A stretch of 64,000 nt of DNA from Candidatus Thorarchaeota archaeon (GTDB lineage Archaea > Asgardarchaeota > Thorarchaeia > Thorarchaeales > Thorarchaeaceae). The position numbers were made by a program, and so were the translations under genes. The DNA lies in NCBI GenBank assembly GCA_003345545.1, contig PRDH01000015.1, forward strand, positions 11,972 to 75,971. Reading direction: 5' to 3'. The notes beneath the pieces are model-generated. The model saw only the letters and a list, made by a program, of their open reading frames with translations. It ran no database searches and had not been told where the DNA came from. This document shows positions 26,052-39,078 of this stretch, one piece after another. Position 1 is the first letter of the stretch; each line of letters begins with the position of its first letter.

Positions 26052-26498
26052 TTAGAAAGTGATGACGAGTTCCATGTCGTGGCTGGTCACATCAGGTCGA
26101 CCTTTGACGCCAATCACGCCTTTCATCATCCAAGTATTACGGGCGTTCATGCTACGGTAGGTCGGAGGCACGCTTGAGGGTAAGGGGAGACTGAAGGGGA
26201 TGCTTTCCCTGAAACCACTAGTGAAATGTCTTCCTCCTGCCACAGTGAGCTTACCTTGATGAAGTGTGCTGGTCTGCTCGGCGGTCACAGGTACCTGCTT
26301 GTTCTGAACCATCTTGTTTTGGGTGGCTCGGGTCCATTCGTTGACCCAGATCTCAATACGGAGTTCATCGGCGTCGAATTCTTCCGATGCCGAAATATCG
26401 AGTTTACCTTGCAGCGGCTCTCTTAGGCTGAACGTTCCCTTGTCAAGCAGCACTGCAATAGACGCGTTTGGTGCTTTTAGCTTACCAAGAAATCCCAT
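26052..26498 (-). CDS. Arrestin N-domain/SpoOM-like beta-sandwich protein
   Basis: LDK..F...EPLQGKL.I, then IPFSLPLPSSVPPTY...NTW..KG.I...GRPD pattern of the arrestin/Vps26/SpoOM fold. Confidence 0.7.
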   Translation of the reverse strand: MGFLGKLKAPNASIAVLLDKGTFSLREPLQGKLDISASEEFDADELRIEIWVNEWTRATQNKMVQNKQVPVTAEQTSTLHQGKLTVAGGRHFTSGFRESIPFSLPLPSSVPPTYRSMNARNTWMMKGVIGVKGRPDVTSHDMELVITF

Positions 26499-26940
26499 AG
26501 ACTTCACATCATTTTATGTATTGAACCCAGATTATGCTGGGTTGCGTGCCATACTGAGGAGGCTGTTCATTTAGCATTTGCGCCTATTGCTTGAAACATG
26601 ACTGAAGATTGACCTCGAAGCTGGGTGTGCCTGCAATCTGACCCGCCAGACGTTCCCCTAGCTCGACCTCGTAGGTGCACTGACTGAGAGACAAAATCAC
26701 TATTCTACTGAGCCATCATACTGAACCAACCTTCAAGCTTGTCCACTCCTTCGAGCCGAATAGTTGTGTCTTGCTCTGTAGGAATAGGTGTTATGATGTC
26801 TGATTTCCATCTTTTGAAGCATCTTGAAACGTAAAGAGGCGAAATATGTTCTATGAATTGTGCTAGCCGACCACCGTTCATAGGATACAGAATGGTGGTT
26901 ATTAAAGGAGAAGTCGAGGATGGTTCTGGTGAACTATATA

Positions 26941-32637: not shown

Positions 32638-32991
32638 ATGTCTTCGGTCCCAACACCAGTCACACCAAAACCCCCAAGGACGAGAGAGAGGGTACTAGTC
32701 ATTCTCCAAGAGCAGTGCAAAGAGTGTGGGCTTTGCATAGAGTTCTGCCCCAAGAAAGTCCTGTGTTTTACAGACATCTATAATCGAAAAGGGTACCATC
32801 CTGTCACTGCGTGCGATATTGATGCATGTGTGAACTGCGAGTTCTGTGAGCGAATTTGCCCGGATATGGCTATTTTTCTTGCCGGCCGTGAAGAGGCAAA
32901 GAAGGCGTACAAAGCAGGGGCGCTTGAAGAGGGAACTGTAATCCCGGAGTTCGAGGCAAAGCCAGCAGAGAGGAAGGAGAAGTCAAAGTAG
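32638..32991 (+). CDS. korD: 2-oxoacid:ferredoxin oxidoreductase delta subunit (2x[4Fe-4S])
   Basis: CKECGLCIEFCP and CVNCEFCERICPD; abuts korA. Confidence 0.85.
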   Translation: MSSVPTPVTPKPPRTRERVLVILQEQCKECGLCIEFCPKKVLCFTDIYNRKGYHPVTACDIDACVNCEFCERICPDMAIFLAGREEAKKAYKAGALEEGTVIPEFEAKPAERKEKSK

Positions 32992-34128
32992 ATGCCCGAG
33001 CGTATCATGTTCACAATGGGGGATATTGCATGCGCTGAGGGTGCACTCTGTGCTGGTTGCAGATACTTTGGTGGATATCCAATCACACCTGCCACCGAGA
33101 TTGCAGAATGGATGTCACAGAGAATGCCGCAAGTTGGTGGTGCCTATGTTCAGTATGAAGATGAGATAGCATCCATTACGAGCGTGATAGGTGCGTCATG
33201 GACTGGAGTGAAATCAATGACAGCTACCTCAGGTCCTGGTGTAAGCCTCATGCAAGAAGCAATTGGCCTGGCAGTGATGACTGAAACACCGCTTGTACTC
33301 GTGAACATCATGCGTGGAGGCCCAAGCACAGGACAGCCCACAAGGGGTCAACAGGGCGATGTCATGCAGGCAAAATGGGGAAGCCACGGCGACTATCAAA
33401 TAATCGCTCTCACTCCAGCATCAGTTCAGGAGATGTTCGACCAGACTATTCAGGCATTCAATCTGTCAGAGCGGTATCGAACGCCTGTCTATGTGCTGGC
33501 TGATGAAACCGTGGGCCATATGAGAGAGAAACTAATCATCCCTGATCAAAAAGACATATGGATTGAGAACCGCAAAACACCCACTGTGGAACCATCAGAG
33601 TATCTACCATTCAAAGCAGATGATGACCTCGTGCCGCCAATGGCTCTGTTGGGATCCAAATATCAGTTCTATGCCACCGGCTTGACTCATGATGAAAGAG
33701 GGTATCCAAGTGACAGCGAAGAAGTTCAGATTGAACTCATAACTCGTCTCAGCAACAAGATACTCCGTAATGCGGATAAGATCATTGACGTCGACCGTGT
33801 AGAGCTGGATGATGCCAGAATCGCTGTGATATCATATGGCACGCCAGCACGAAGTGCAAAGAGGGCCATCAAGATCGCTCGCGAGCAGGGTATCAAGGTC
33901 GGGATGCTAAGGCTCAAGACTGTGTGGCCATTCCCTGAAAACGAGGTTGCACAGATTGCCACAGAGGTCGACCATATCATTGTCGCAGAACAGAACCTTG
34001 GACAGGTCTACTATATGGTGAAGGCTGCAGCTGCTTCGACACCAGTTCATCTAATGGCAAAGCCCGCAGGAATGCCGCAGCTTCCTAGCGAGATTCTTGA
34101 CAAAATCAAAGAGATTGATGCGCAATAG
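32992..34128 (+). CDS. korA: 2-oxoglutarate:ferredoxin oxidoreductase alpha subunit
   Basis: GYPITPATE, EDEIAS, ATSGPG, RGGPSTGQPT, HGDY. Confidence 0.9.
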   Translation: MPERIMFTMGDIACAEGALCAGCRYFGGYPITPATEIAEWMSQRMPQVGGAYVQYEDEIASITSVIGASWTGVKSMTATSGPGVSLMQEAIGLAVMTETPLVLVNIMRGGPSTGQPTRGQQGDVMQAKWGSHGDYQIIALTPASVQEMFDQTIQAFNLSERYRTPVYVLADETVGHMREKLIIPDQKDIWIENRKTPTVEPSEYLPFKADDDLVPPMALLGSKYQFYATGLTHDERGYPSDSEEVQIELITRLSNKILRNADKIIDVDRVELDDARIAVISYGTPARSAKRAIKIAREQGIKVGMLRLKTVWPFPENEVAQIATEVDHIIVAEQNLGQVYYMVKAAAASTPVHLMAKPAGMPQLPSEILDKIKEIDAQ

Positions 34129-34196
34129 AGCCAACGGCTATTCTTGGTTCATGATGCTCTACACAGGGAAGAGTTAAGTCAAGAAGACGATGGAGT

Positions 34197-35177
34197 TTGA
34201 TCATGAGGGTCCTAGTGACTGGGTCATTTGGCAACCTCGGAGAGAGCACATTATTGGCACTCTTCGAGAAGGACTATGAAATAAGATGCTTCGATCTATG
34301 TACTAATGCAAGCCAAAAGACACAAGAAAGGTTGGAGAAGAGAGGCGTCTTTGACACAATATGGGGGGATATTCTTGACATAGAAACTGTGAAATCTAGT
34401 GTCGAAGATGTTGACTGCATCATCCACCTAGTGGGAATCATGCCCCCCTTGTCTGAGAGAAGACCAGATCTTGCAAGAGCCATAAACGTTGAGGGAACTC
34501 GAAACATCATCAATGCAGCAGAAACACAGGGCAGATTACCCAAGTTCATCTTTGCAGGATCGGTATCAACATTCGGACCCACGATGCACCTCCAGCCACC
34601 ACGAGCTGCAAAGGATCCATTGGTAGCCACTGATACATACACTGAAACAAAAATCGCCTGCGAAGGGATAGTACGAGCGTGCAGTCTTCCTTGGACAATC
34701 CTGCGAATCACAGCGGCACCACCAACTGTGGTTAGTGCAGACATGAGTGCACTGATGTTCGAGATGCCACTCGACCAACGGATCGAGTTCGTACACTCTC
34801 GGGATGTTGGCCTGGCCTGTGCAAATGCAGTGGAGGCAGAAACATCTGGAAAGACACTTCTAATAGGCGGTGGAAGGTCAAACCAGATGATTCAACGGGA
34901 ATTTATCTCGAGAGTAATGAAGTTGATGGGTCTGGGATTGCCCCCTGAGTCCGCATTCAAAGTGCCAAAGAGGCCCGAGGAATACTATTACACTGATTGG
35001 CTCGATACCGAAGAGTCACAGCGACTTCTGAAATATCAGACTCGAGCATTTGACCAGTATCTCGAAGAGATGAAGTCCATGCTAGGTGTCAAGAGATATG
35101 TTACCAGACTATTCAAGGGACAAGCGATGAAGCAAATACTTGCGGCCTCACCATATTACACGAAGAGCGATGACTGA
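34197..35177 (+). CDS. NAD-dependent epimerase/dehydratase (extended SDR)
   Basis: VLVTGSFGNLG, NVEGTRN, YTETK (YxxxK). Confidence 0.87.
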   Translation: MIMRVLVTGSFGNLGESTLLALFEKDYEIRCFDLCTNASQKTQERLEKRGVFDTIWGDILDIETVKSSVEDVDCIIHLVGIMPPLSERRPDLARAINVEGTRNIINAAETQGRLPKFIFAGSVSTFGPTMHLQPPRAAKDPLVATDTYTETKIACEGIVRACSLPWTILRITAAPPTVVSADMSALMFEMPLDQRIEFVHSRDVGLACANAVEAETSGKTLLIGGGRSNQMIQREFISRVMKLMGLGLPPESAFKVPKRPEEYYYTDWLDTEESQRLLKYQTRAFDQYLEEMKSMLGVKRYVTRLFKGQAMKQILAASPYYTKSDD

Positions 35178-35245
35178 TTCTCTTTGGAGAGAGAACGAGA
35201 GATATCACACGAAATCAAAGGCACGTTCATTCTCATGGCAAAGGA

Positions 35246-35761
35246 CTAGAAAAGCGATTGGCAAATGCTCCGTGCAATCATCTCGAAGGCCTTGTTCACA
35301 TTCTTATCATCTCTGACCGAGGTTTCGATATAGTCCATTCCTAGTTCGCGTGCCATTCTTTGGCCTTCCTCAATAGGGATGACTCTCTCCTCCACAAGGT
35401 CTGTCTTGTTCGCCACAAGTAATGACTTGTATTCCTCCACATTTCGGTCGACTTCTTTTTTCCATTCAATCACATCATGTAGAGTTTCCCATGCAGTGAC
35501 ATCATAGAGGAAAATGACTCCCTGCGTGCCAATGTAGTAGTTTGCCCGTACCCTCTCAAGAAAAGCCTGAGAGCCCAGATCCCAAATCTGGAGATTCACA
35601 AGATTGTTGTCAACCTGCATCTTCTTGTAGGCAAAACCAGTTCCTAGGGTTGGAGAATAGTGTTCCCTGAAGACCCCTGTGGAGTATCGGATGATGATAC
35701 TCGTCTTGCCTACTGATGCGGATCCAACGGTGACTACCTTGAGAAGATAAGTTGGACTCAT
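35246..35761 (-). CDS. Rab-like small GTPase
   Basis: G1 GSASVGKT, G2 YSPTLG, G3 LQIWDLGSQ, G4 NKTD, G5 ETSVR. Confidence 0.93.
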   Translation of the reverse strand: MSPTYLLKVVTVGSASVGKTSIIIRYSTGVFREHYSPTLGTGFAYKKMQVDNNLVNLQIWDLGSQAFLERVRANYYIGTQGVIFLYDVTAWETLHDVIEWKKEVDRNVEEYKSLLVANKTDLVEERVIPIEEGQRMARELGMDYIETSVRDDKNVNKAFEMIARSICQSLF

Positions 35762-35865
35762 ACTTAATCATCCCACGAATCTCAGGGACCTATTGTCGTG
35801 TAAATCAGATAACGGTTACCATGACATATGAACTCGTCGAATGAACATACAGAGCAGCTGTAATC

Positions 35866-37467
35866 CTAGTACGTGATGGTTGTAGGGATAGATGTGATGG
35901 TCTTAGGAATAGTGATACCGAGTTGTAATGACAGTATCAGCAGAGTCAACTTCGCGGCCGCTCCCAGTTTGGAGTACTCCAACATCAAACGCTTCAGGCT
36001 CTCATTCTTTTGCCACTTCACCCAATAATCAGGAGGTATATCCATCAGCGGCACTCCGGATGCCGCACAGATTCTACTGATACGCTCTGTCCCATAGATG
36101 GCCTGACCCCTTGTGACAAGGGTGAAGATCATCTCTTCTGTAGCATCATCACCTGCCGGTGTTAACGACCCGGTCTTGATTGTTCTAATCTGAGACCGAC
36201 CATGGCTGCTCAGTTGCTCTAACCAGAGGGAGTACTCCTCAAATCCTCGCATATCAAATGGAGCAAACCGACTGACTATGCGTTCTCTGAAGGCATTAGT
36301 AAGGGCAATAGCAAAGGATTCAAGGTTCCTAGGGTCAAGAGCCGCCGCAAACTGTGCCAGGATTTTCATCCATTCACCAAAGAGGAGCATGAGCCTTCGG
36401 TTGTTGAGGCCTTCGAGGATTTTGATGTCGAAATCAACAGACCAATGGTTGTCTGCAAAACGAAGTTGCCCCAGGGTTTCGGGGGTCTCACTCGCATTCA
36501 TAACAGAGGTCAGAGCTTTAGTGGCATCTCCTACCGGGTAGCATTCCTCAGCCACACGTAGCGATATCTCAAGAACCTCCTTTGCCAGGAGAATACGTCT
36601 CTTCTCGGGAGAGAGAGCCTCAATCACCCCAGTTTCAAGAAGATAGTCCAGCGCCCTAAGTATCTCTCGCTCATCGTATGAGGCGCCGAGCTCACCAAGT
36701 ATCTCTCTGACAGTTCGTCGGCCGTCCATCAGACCTGCAATACGGGGGATTACAACAAGCATCTCTGGATGTAGGTTGCGCAATGCTTCGGTTTCTCGAG
36801 ATGTCGCCTGCACATACCGAAAGAACTCAGTCCGAGCCGAAACGAAATCATTGAAGCTCAGTGTGTTACGAAAGCGAATGACGCGATATGCCCATAACTT
36901 GGATATCTCAAGGAATAGGTCTCTCTTTGATAGTCCACTCACTTCCAGTATCTCCTTCATGTTTCGGGATCCGTTGATTAGCGGCACGAGAGTACCACTG
37001 GACGTGACAATTGTGTTCGGGTCAACTGTGAAGTATGGTACCCATGAATCGGGAAGGTCATCAAAGGAGAGCTTCATCATCACGCTTTCGCCAAAGGGCT
37101 CCAAGTAGGCCTCTGCAAAGGACACATCATTATCATAGAGTTGCGTTTTTGGAAGCCATTTCTGTTCAAATTCAGTCAGCAGCGAATTGAGTACACGAAT
37201 GACCTCTGTGTTAAGACTCTGCACGCCAACAGCTACCATGTGCACATTCTCGCCATTCAATACTGTAAAAACGTGAGCCCCATAATCTACGTGGAAGACA
37301 GGTGCACTCTGCTGAAACACTTCTTTTGAGAACATGTCGATGGCAGTGAAGAAGCTTGATGCGAGAATAGGATTCATACCAAAGGCACGAGGATCAAGTT
37401 GCATGTAGAAACGAGGATTGCTGTTCTTGTCTGTTATTAGGATGGCTTCAATCACGTGTCCAGGCAT
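35866..37467 (-). CDS. Longin-domain plus tandem winged-helix protein, NPRL2 (GATOR1)-like
   Basis: N-terminal longin pattern (LASSFFTAIDMFSKEV...L..LL.EFEQKW), VPYFTVD linker, two (I/M)(N/D)G.R...EI wHTH units. Confidence 0.7.
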   Translation of the reverse strand: MPGHVIEAILITDKNSNPRFYMQLDPRAFGMNPILASSFFTAIDMFSKEVFQQSAPVFHVDYGAHVFTVLNGENVHMVAVGVQSLNTEVIRVLNSLLTEFEQKWLPKTQLYDNDVSFAEAYLEPFGESVMMKLSFDDLPDSWVPYFTVDPNTIVTSSGTLVPLINGSRNMKEILEVSGLSKRDLFLEISKLWAYRVIRFRNTLSFNDFVSARTEFFRYVQATSRETEALRNLHPEMLVVIPRIAGLMDGRRTVREILGELGASYDEREILRALDYLLETGVIEALSPEKRRILLAKEVLEISLRVAEECYPVGDATKALTSVMNASETPETLGQLRFADNHWSVDFDIKILEGLNNRRLMLLFGEWMKILAQFAAALDPRNLESFAIALTNAFRERIVSRFAPFDMRGFEEYSLWLEQLSSHGRSQIRTIKTGSLTPAGDDATEEMIFTLVTRGQAIYGTERISRICAASGVPLMDIPPDYWVKWQKNESLKRLMLEYSKLGAAAKLTLLILSLQLGITIPKTITSIPTTITY

Positions 37468-37670
37468 CTTGACGCACTATCTTTGATGATGGTAGGTTTT
37501 GATGAATATTAGCCTTCTTTGGAGAGACAATAGGTAGGTATCTCACGACTTCATTGAGAGCGGTCAGTGCATTTTATCATGACTGACTATTCGAATATGA
37601 CTCGACTCGTCGACCACATCAACAAGCCTTTTATCATATTGACAGTCGAAACTTGATGAGAGTACCCTCC

Positions 37671-38516
37671 ATGACTGAAGCAGTGCGTGTCTTGAAGCAT
37701 CCGATGGCCAAGTACATTCGAACTGATAGAACTCCATTCATCTATTGCCCGGGCTGCTCTGTCGGGATTGTATCAGGCATGCTCGCAAGAGCAATTGATA
37801 ATCTTGGCATCGATTTTACCAAGGTCGTAGTGGTTTCAGGCGTTGGATGTACAGGAAGAACCTCAGGGTACTTCAAGACGGGGACATACCATACAACTCA
37901 TGGAAGGGCAATAGCTTTCGCAGAAGGCGTGAAAATAGCTAATCCTGAACTCAGCGTCATTGTTGTCAGTGGGGATGGGGATGTTGCAGCTATTGGCGGT
38001 AATCATCTCATTCATGCGTGTCGTAGGAATATTGACATAACTGTCATCTGCATCAACAACTTCAATTACGGCATGACAGGAGGGCAGTTTGGCCCAACAA
38101 CTGAGCACGAACGATTCTCTCAGACGAGCCCAGCTCCGATTGGCAACATAGAGCATCCATTCAACTTAGTGAAGCTAGCAGCATCATCTGGTGCGACCTT
38201 TGTGGCGAGATGGACAGCAATCCAAGTTCGAAGAGCAACAAAGTCAATGGAGAAGGCAATCAAGAGGAAGGGTTTTTCATTCGTCGAAATAATCGGAGCC
38301 TGCCCCACAGCCTATGGTAGAATGAACCGATTGGGTGACGGTCTGGCCATGCATAAGCATCTACTGGAGGTCGCCGAGATTCAGAATGGTCTGCCACCTC
38401 ATGAGGCAGAGCTTGACTATGCTCGTAGAATTGTATGTGGTGAGTTTGTGGACATTGAAAAGCCGGAGTACACCGCTGTTCTAGAAGAAGCGCATCGTCG
38501 AGCCAAGGGTGAATGA
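37671..38516 (+). CDS. korB: 2-oxoglutarate:ferredoxin oxidoreductase beta subunit
   Basis: YCPGC, SGVGC, HGRA, GDGD..AIGGNH, NNFNYGMTGGQ TPP-binding motifs. Confidence 0.9.
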   Translation: MTEAVRVLKHPMAKYIRTDRTPFIYCPGCSVGIVSGMLARAIDNLGIDFTKVVVVSGVGCTGRTSGYFKTGTYHTTHGRAIAFAEGVKIANPELSVIVVSGDGDVAAIGGNHLIHACRRNIDITVICINNFNYGMTGGQFGPTTEHERFSQTSPAPIGNIEHPFNLVKLAASSGATFVARWTAIQVRRATKSMEKAIKRKGFSFVEIIGACPTAYGRMNRLGDGLAMHKHLLEVAEIQNGLPPHEAELDYARRIVCGEFVDIEKPEYTAVLEEAHRRAKGE

Positions 38517-39078
38517 TTTGAGCAGATACGAGATACGAATCGCAGGCTTTGGTGGTCAAGGTGTGGTCACAATGGCTGTGGTGGTCGGAGAAACCGCTGC
38601 ACTGAATGACAATAAGTACGTCGTGCAGACCCAGTCATATGGACCGGAAGCCCGTGGCGGTGCGAGCAAGAGCGAGATAGTCATCTCTGATGAAGAAATT
38701 GACTACCCAAAGGTCATGGCACCTGATGTGTTTGTGGCGTTGAGTAGAGCTGCCTACCTAGAATACATCCACGGTCTAAAAGAGGATGGAGTTCTTATCA
38801 TAGATGAAGACATGGTGGGCGTGGAGGGCAAGCTTCCCAAAGGAGTGAAGGTCTACAAGATACCTGCAACAAAGATTGCAGACAAGGAAGTAGGTAACAA
38901 ACAAGCGACAAATATGGTGATGCTAGGAGCCTTTACCGTCATCACGAGAGCATTGTCAATTGGGGGGCTGAGGGCCAGAATCGAAGAGAAGTGGCCGAAA
39001 TTCCTCAAGACGAACATGCTCGCATTGGAACTGGGCATAAGAGCGGGCGAAGAGGCCTTGGCCAAGAACGATGACTGA
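38509..39078 (+). CDS. korC: 2-oxoacid:ferredoxin oxidoreductase gamma subunit
   Basis: IAGFGGQGV, QSYGPEARGGAS, NMVMLGA. Confidence 0.9.
   Translation: MNDLSRYEIRIAGFGGQGVVTMAVVVGETAALNDNKYVVQTQSYGPEARGGASKSEIVISDEEIDYPKVMAPDVFVALSRAAYLEYIHGLKEDGVLIIDEDMVGVEGKLPKGVKVYKIPATKIADKEVGNKQATNMVMLGAFTVITRALSIGGLRARIEEKWPKFLKTNMLALELGIRAGEEALAKNDD

Follow-up and report, generated by a model that had tools for sequence, protein, structure and literature searches.

The NPRL2-like protein of 533 aa and the Rab-like GTPase encoded beside it in the 64,000-nt stretch of Candidatus Thorarchaeota archaeon DNA analyzed here (the window) appear to be dedicated partners in signalling within one Thorarchaeota family. 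On the best reading of the data, the 533-aa protein works as a partner of this GTPase outside the GATOR1 GAP family and is not a GATOR1 precursor. The protein would consist of an NPRL2/3-type platform, recognizable by homology, joined to an Asgard-specific helical domain and a tail module, and this extension is predicted by structural modeling to clamp switch I, the interswitch strand, and switch II of the GTPase. The NPRL2-like family is already known; the pairing with a GTPase, the extra domain, and the exchange between the GTPase and an ODP di-iron protein are apparently new.

The two genes are co-oriented, with the gene for the 533-aa protein upstream, as originally predicted, and the motifs quoted in that prediction are present in the 533-aa translation. 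The features of the locus, in window coordinates and all on the minus strand, are as follows.

35866..37467 (-): NPRL2/3-like gene, 533 aa, with a longin domain, two winged helices, a helical domain, and a fused tail module.
37063..37455 (-): longin domain, residues 5-135, with VIA Z of 10-12 to the longins of adaptin (AP), TRAPP, and SNARE proteins (residues 4-135 aligned).
36613..37041 (-): tandem winged-helix region, residues 143-285, homologous to NPRL2 171-333 by profile and Foldseek.
36208..36612 (-): helical domain with one hairpin, residues 286-420, family-specific, bearing most of the predicted GTPase interface.
36343..36390 (-): predicted interface helix, residues 360-375 (G364, M367, K368, A371, Q372), placed on switch I 35-39.
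36214..36249 (-): predicted interface helix, residues 407-418 (R407, E411, W415), placed on switch I 36-40.
35908..36150 (-): helical tail module after a linker, residues ~440-520, with invariant R453 in the predicted interface.
35762..35865 (-): spacer of 104 nt, with a Shine-Dalgarno-like GGGATGA ahead of the GTPase start and no terminator-like hairpin.
35246..35761 (-): Rab-like GTPase gene, 171 aa, with P-loop, switch I Thr38, Gln65, and NKxD intact and a C-terminal prenylation motif absent.
35567..35581 (-): deviant G3 motif DLGSQ, with Ser at the Ras G60 position by alignment to Rab1 (S64 in 62 of 65 rows).
35315..35326 (-): G5 motif ETSV, with Val at the Ras A146 position (V149 in 63 of 65 rows).

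The Shine-Dalgarno-like motif precedes the GTPase gene in the window and in 35 of 60 loci, and a bacterial-type promoter scan of the locus is uninformative, the host being an archaeon. As read from translations, the pair interrupts an apparent set of 2-oxoacid:ferredoxin oxidoreductase genes, whose halves lie at 32638-34128 and 37653-39078, and a NAD-dependent epimerase gene (34197-35177) shares this gap (window 32638-39078). These oxidoreductase surroundings are confined to part of the related loci, and the flanking genes are not constant. Elsewhere in the window, a 151-aa protein encoded at 26052-26507 (-) has weak Spo0M and arrestin-N matches (E 7e-4 and 0.01).

The AlphaFold2 model of the 533-aa protein has a pLDDT of 80.8 and a pTM of 0.75, and all 13 of its 13 Foldseek matches at E<=0.001 are GATOR1/SEACIT chains, aligned over 343-496 columns. 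With the 533-aa query alone, a Pfam search returns no match and a single-sequence PDB search nothing useful; across the 79 relatives, neither Pfam NPR2 (PF06218; weak matches in 5 of 79, best E 0.0012) nor Pfam HTH_NPRL3 (weak matches in 10 of 79, best E 0.0078) reaches its curated cut-off. The 79-sequence profile ranks human NPRL2 174-263 first, weakly (E 0.094). A deeper profile of 78 sequences, widened with distant relatives, retrieves NPRL2 171-333 (E 1.1e-10) and yeast Npr2 (E 4.5e-6), and the resemblance to NPRL2 that had initially been proposed is therefore real. The proposed architecture of a longin followed by tandem winged helices likewise holds on the VIA, profile, and Foldseek evidence. 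A profile of the longin alone does not retrieve NPRL2, and at the level of sequence the homology to NPRL2 covers the winged helices and not the longin, whose closest natural sequence among PDB entries is Mon1, a weak match (E 0.013). The named homologues of the protein are mostly labelled Thorarchaeota, and all are called hypothetical.

Modeled alone, residues 284-525 reach a pLDDT of 90.4. Fold searches with this segment give no clear match (Foldseek best E 0.63, VIA best Z 5.7, Atlas TM <=0.35), and a search of the ESM Atlas by features gives no usable match. The top Foldseek match, the GAP-related domain of IQGAP, is not credible (E 0.63, TM 0.23), and a suspected likeness to the H-NOX N-terminal subdomain stays at noise level (6mx5, Z 4.7; 3tf0, E 1.7). 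BLAST detects no similarity between the helical domain and the tail. The tail is a separate gene of ~105-120 aa both in a second GTPase-linked clade and in the ODP cassettes described below.

The 171-aa protein belongs to the Ras family (Pfam Ras, E 1.5e-43), with Rab1, Rab3, and the Thorarchaeota Rab 7ezb as its best PDB matches; Pfam Gtr1_RagA scores 20 bits, below the cut-off of 22, in agreement with the original assignment of the partner as Rab-like rather than Rag-like. Residues G13, G18, K19, T38, Q65, N118, K119, and D121 are nearly invariant. By sequence, however, the partner does not conform to the canonical G3 DxxG and G5 SAK motifs. The GSQ motif occurs in none of the other small GTPases of the genome; ETSV is also found in an unlinked relative (L107). 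Only 4 of 43 rows have a cysteine within the final five residues, and no protein ends in CC or CxC. Changes at Ras codon 146 raise nucleotide exchange (PMC7072554), and by analogy the Val at this position may give fast exchange without a GEF. Ras G60A favors an inactive GTP state with impaired hydrolysis, and effector binding stabilizes the active state (PMC4867591); the Ser at the equivalent position may, by the same kind of analogy, make the active switch conformation dependent on the partner.

The association of the two genes was followed in 78 related loci and the window, 79 in all. A GTPase of the same type follows the NPRL2-like gene in 62 of the 79, comprising 45 loci of the fused type and 17 of a split type, in which a core gene is accompanied by a separate tail gene of ~110 aa. 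Chance adjacency is rejected because the pair stays while the flanking genes change, falling into more than a dozen families. Among 301 Asgard genomes the partner-type GTPase (E<1e-70) is found only in the family to which the window belongs; at E<=1e-55 it is present in 54 of the 76 genomes of that family, with one weak match elsewhere. Within the same 301 genomes, 65 of 68 partner-type GTPases lie less than 4 kb downstream of an NPRL2-like gene, and 13 genomes carry two linked pairs. The three exceptions are one GTPase at a contig end and two that stand alone (L104:2351-3031 and L105:5738-6256), both of the DLGSQ type and lacking an NPRL2-like gene in the 5 kb upstream, the genome of L105 being a single contig. 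Pairwise distances of the NPRL2-like protein and the GTPase correlate (Spearman 0.87, 57 pairs), a value to which kinship alone would contribute a part, since kin are not independent.

Several loci depart from the common layout. Four full-length copies (L019, L023, L052, L054) have no adjacent GTPase and keep most interface residues, with K368 replaced by Arg; the genomes of L019 and L023 carry a linked pair elsewhere. The second copy in the genome of the window (L080:7907-10720, on contig C30 of G000) is of the split type, with 408 aa plus a 117-aa tail, and is followed by a serine beta-lactamase-family gene that reaches the contig end. In four other loci (L055, L058, L061, L065) the GTPase comes after the same inserted beta-lactamase-family gene, and the GTPase partner of the L080 copy is probably unassembled. 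At L048:5058-9134 the order is a canonical-type GTPase, a full-length gene, a 265-aa duplicate, and the partner GTPase; the duplicate consists of the C-terminal helical domain and tail only, that is, the predicted GTPase-binding part.

The complex was modeled from one copy each of the full-length protein and the GTPase, with GTP and Mg, and in that nucleotide state only. This check, envisaged in the original prediction, yields a complex score of 0.86 as compared with 0.00 for the best of three controls, in a test that near relatives of the true partner may also pass and whose controls included no other Rab of the genome. Of 80 solved complexes, 58 attain the mark set for this score, as do 2 of 110 mismatched pairs, counts that hold only roughly here. 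The runs share at least 86% of contacts, the pLDDT of the partner is at least 90, and the prediction supports binding of the two proteins. On the side of the NPRL2-like protein the predicted interface comprises residues 288, 291, 325, 360-375, 407-418, 423-439, and 452-456, and on the side of the GTPase switch I (34-40), the interswitch (41-45), and switch II (65-78). The best predicted contacts are made by GTPase positions 35-43 and 75-77, on the face that effectors usually bind; residues 16, 35, and 65, which surround the gamma-phosphate, are likewise in the interface list. Columns belonging to the interface show higher conservation than columns picked at random from the domain (0.81 vs 0.67, p 0.006). 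In this single-copy model no residue of the longin or the winged helices is listed, and the predicted interface, spanning residues 288-456, lies outside the NPRL2-homologous part, which does not support the initial idea of the longin as a GAP or GEF surface.

In four distant loci the GTPase is replaced by an ODP di-iron protein, encoded between the core and the tail gene, and none of the GTPases found in these four genomes is of the partner type (best 148-159 bits vs 313). The core-ODP-tail unit recurs in additional relatives, drawn from several Asgard families with that of the window among them; an NPRL2-like core, an ODP, and a tail of ~107 aa are present at L069, L070, L072, L074, L097-L101, L109-L114, L116, and L118. 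At L113 and L118 the genes run ODP-tail-core; at L118 there is a core gene on either side, and an MCP gene adjoins. No close ODP is found in the assembly of the window, where the best matches (E 2e-16) are to flavodiiron-sized proteins of ~400 aa. Among residues fixed in both GTPase-linked clades, those of the predicted interface are kept less well in 11 ODP-linked paralogues than those outside it (0.40 vs 0.63, p 0.015; p 0.007 when the comparison stays within the same domain). The test contrasts clades, which represent few independent events, and sets surface positions against partly buried ones. A371, R407, Q372, and K368 are among the ten residues least kept. A first version with four ODP rows is not significant (Fisher p 0.24). 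The lower retention fits the predicted interface and, coming from a comparison of clades, is suggestive only.

In a tree with the further paralogues, which has long branches and a midpoint root, the GTPase-linked proteins form one clade (SH-aLRT 99) that stands beside the ODP-linked proteins of Thorarchaeota (SH-aLRT 89) and is nested among the ODP-linked ones, for which the AU test rejects a single clade (p 6e-8). Read most simply, coupling to a GTPase is a trait derived inside one Thorarchaeota family, and duplication and, in one branch, fusion of the tail came afterwards. Since the coupling looks like a Thorarchaeota-specific swap into an ODP cassette, the pair is not a minimal ancestral GATOR1-Rag module. 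The role in nutrient signalling that was proposed at first finds no support in these data.

We tentatively favor, as the leading single reading, a lineage-specific GTPase with an NPRL2-type partner that reads its GTP state as an effector does. The platform would recognize the GTP-loaded form, making the GTPase an input to it, and output would run through the longin and winged helices; the synteny and trees suggest that the GTPase entered this cassette in place of the O2/Fe sensor ODP, its occupant in other Asgard lineages. Consistent with an effector are the linkage of the genes, the double-pair genomes, and the correlated distances, together with the complex score and best contacts on the effector face. 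The conservation of the interface and its lower retention in ODP-linked paralogues point the same way, as do the four ODP genomes without a partner-type GTPase and the single GTPase-linked clade. Against this reading, contacts with GTPase residues 16, 35, and 65 fit a GAP as well, the model covers the GTP/Mg state with controls drawn from outside the other Rabs of the genome, and the ODP contrast compares clades and has the four-row result given above. The solitary GTPases of L104 and L105 and the ETSV motif of unlinked L107 also fit it poorly.

Because the predicted interface also reaches GTPase residues 16, 35, and 65, the main rival to an effector is a GAP of non-GATOR type acting through the helical domain, which is unlikely but deserves serious weight. 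Here K368, Q372, R407, or R291 would serve as an Asn/Gln thumb or Arg finger, or the partner would order DLGSQ. All four belong to the predicted interface and show no variation across the two GTPase-linked clades, and K368, Q372, and R407 vary in ODP-linked paralogues; moreover, a fast-exchanging GTPase, if the analogy with Ras codon 146 (PMC7072554) holds, would need a GAP and not a GEF. However, the closest predicted pairs are on switch I 36-40 and are not listed near the catalytic Gln, and the weak fold searches give no clear match of the helical domain and tail to a known GAP fold.

A role as a GEF, or as a GDI-like holder of the GDP state, is improbable. Longin proteins are mostly GEFs (PMC10933270), GEFs also grip switches I and II, and the weak match of the longin to Mon1 (E 0.013) would suit such a role, but the longin has no part in the predicted interface, and it was with GTP and Mg present that the complex was predicted with confidence. 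It is more improbable still that the two genes are co-regulated neighbors of one pathway whose products make no physical contact. Such an arrangement would account for the minority of full-length copies without an adjacent GTPase and for the two GTPases that stand alone; it is at odds with the complex prediction, the interface-specific conservation, and the co-duplication of the genes, and the unlinked copies retain most interface residues, with linked pairs elsewhere in the L019 and L023 genomes.

In longins that act as GAPs, strand 2 is preceded by a GP motif and there is an arginine finger (PMC12290439), which in NPRL2 is Arg78 (PMC8534245). The GP motif is absent before longin strand 2 of the 533-aa protein, the family having G-x-P and the window copy S-N-P. 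The turn between longin strands 4 and 5, where we take Arg78 of NPRL2 to sit, is tight, of the same length in 65 of 65 proteins, and devoid of Arg by column counts. R65 is the only frequent longin Arg in both clades and is His in the window copy and in 8 of 65 relatives. As judged from these motifs, the GATOR1 catalytic apparatus is absent from the 533-aa protein, and the failure of the first inspection to find an arginine finger is thus upheld. A minimal GAP of the GATOR1 type, whose longin dimer would stimulate the GTPase, is accordingly the least probable reading and a very doubtful one, for although the NPRL2/3 homology is clear and the single-copy model leaves room for a second site, the catalytic motifs are missing, the homology lies in the winged helices and not the longin, and the partner is Rab-like.

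Other longin-winged-helix proteins are encoded in the same genome. At L079:7808-9537 (G000:C24), two tandem co-oriented paralogues of 300 and 275 aa, 39% identical and with overlapping stop and start, each consist of a longin and two winged helices with nothing extra; this type of tandem recurs in about 20 of 24 genomes of the same genus and resembles an NPRL2/NPRL3-type heterodimer in architecture more closely than the 533-aa protein does. A 649-aa protein (G000:C17:24974-26923, +) has small-GTPase motifs fused to a longin-winged-helix region, its residues 376-647 matching the family profile at E 4e-11. Further longin or longin-winged-helix paralogues with no tail or GTPase neighbor are found at G000:C70:36737-37930, C74:1-420, C41:7779-8390, and C3:34498-36939.

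That an Asgard NPRL2-like family might already have been noted proved correct: the text on Fig. 5c of a preprint describes NPRL2-like proteins from the majority of Thorarchaeota MAGs (Liu et al., bioRxiv 10.1101/2020.10.19.343400). As described there, that family likewise joins a longin to an NPRL2-type C-terminal domain in Thorarchaeota, a match by architecture in which the subfamily is not certain, the genome of the window encoding several longin-winged-helix paralogues; the same portion of the text names no GTPase neighbor, extra helical domain, tail, or ODP cassette. A search of the open-access literature found nothing on a dedicated GTPase pairing, the extra domain, or an ODP swap. NPRL2/NPRL3 (Npr2/Npr3) of GATOR1/SEACIT, the GAP for RagA/Gtr1, share the order of a longin and tandem winged helices, whereas the protein described here lacks the GP motif and the Arg78-type finger, is paired with a Rab-like instead of a Rag protein, and has ~240 extra C-terminal residues that bear the predicted interface. 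Unlike GATOR1, the two-gene unit has no second subunit and no DEPDC5/Iml1. The Asgard Roadblock-Rab-DENN (FLCN-like) operon, as outlined in the preprint (bioRxiv 10.1101/2020.10.19.343400), and the Heimdall longins with GP motif and Arg finger (PMC12290439) also place a GTPase gene beside a regulator of longin or roadblock type; in contrast, the present unit has no DENN or roadblock gene, and the catalytic motifs are absent. Thor-Rab (PDB 7ezb; PMC10933270), a paralogue of the partner GTPase (E 4e-32), is also a Thorarchaeota Rab-like protein without prenylation cysteines. The ODP di-iron O2/Fe sensor is known together with its receptor from Treponema denticola (TDE2498/TDE2496; PMC7666581); here it belongs to the sister cassettes and not to the locus in the window.

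Small GTPases and longin proteins number in the dozens in Asgard genomes, and assigning GTPases to their regulators by gene layout has been called difficult, those of MK-D1 being generally not in shared operons (Tran et al., PMC10933270). The near one-to-one pair described here, with a confident predicted interface and named residues, is directly testable. One bolder proposal, which we regard as unlikely, is that the helical domain (286-420) and tail constitute a new small-GTPase regulatory fold, a finger-less GAP on a GTPase with a rewired G3, which arose in Thorarchaeota when a GTPase replaced ODP; if true, a GTPase was recruited to an NPRL2-type platform independently of eukaryotic GATOR1-Rag. 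More generally, the NPRL2-type platform seems to be an older part of Asgard signalling with exchangeable partners, either an ODP sensor or a Rab-like GTPase, and the Thorarchaeota GTPase link seems, from the modeled complex, to use a surface other than that of GATOR1, which tempers the view of such proteins as GATOR1 precursors.
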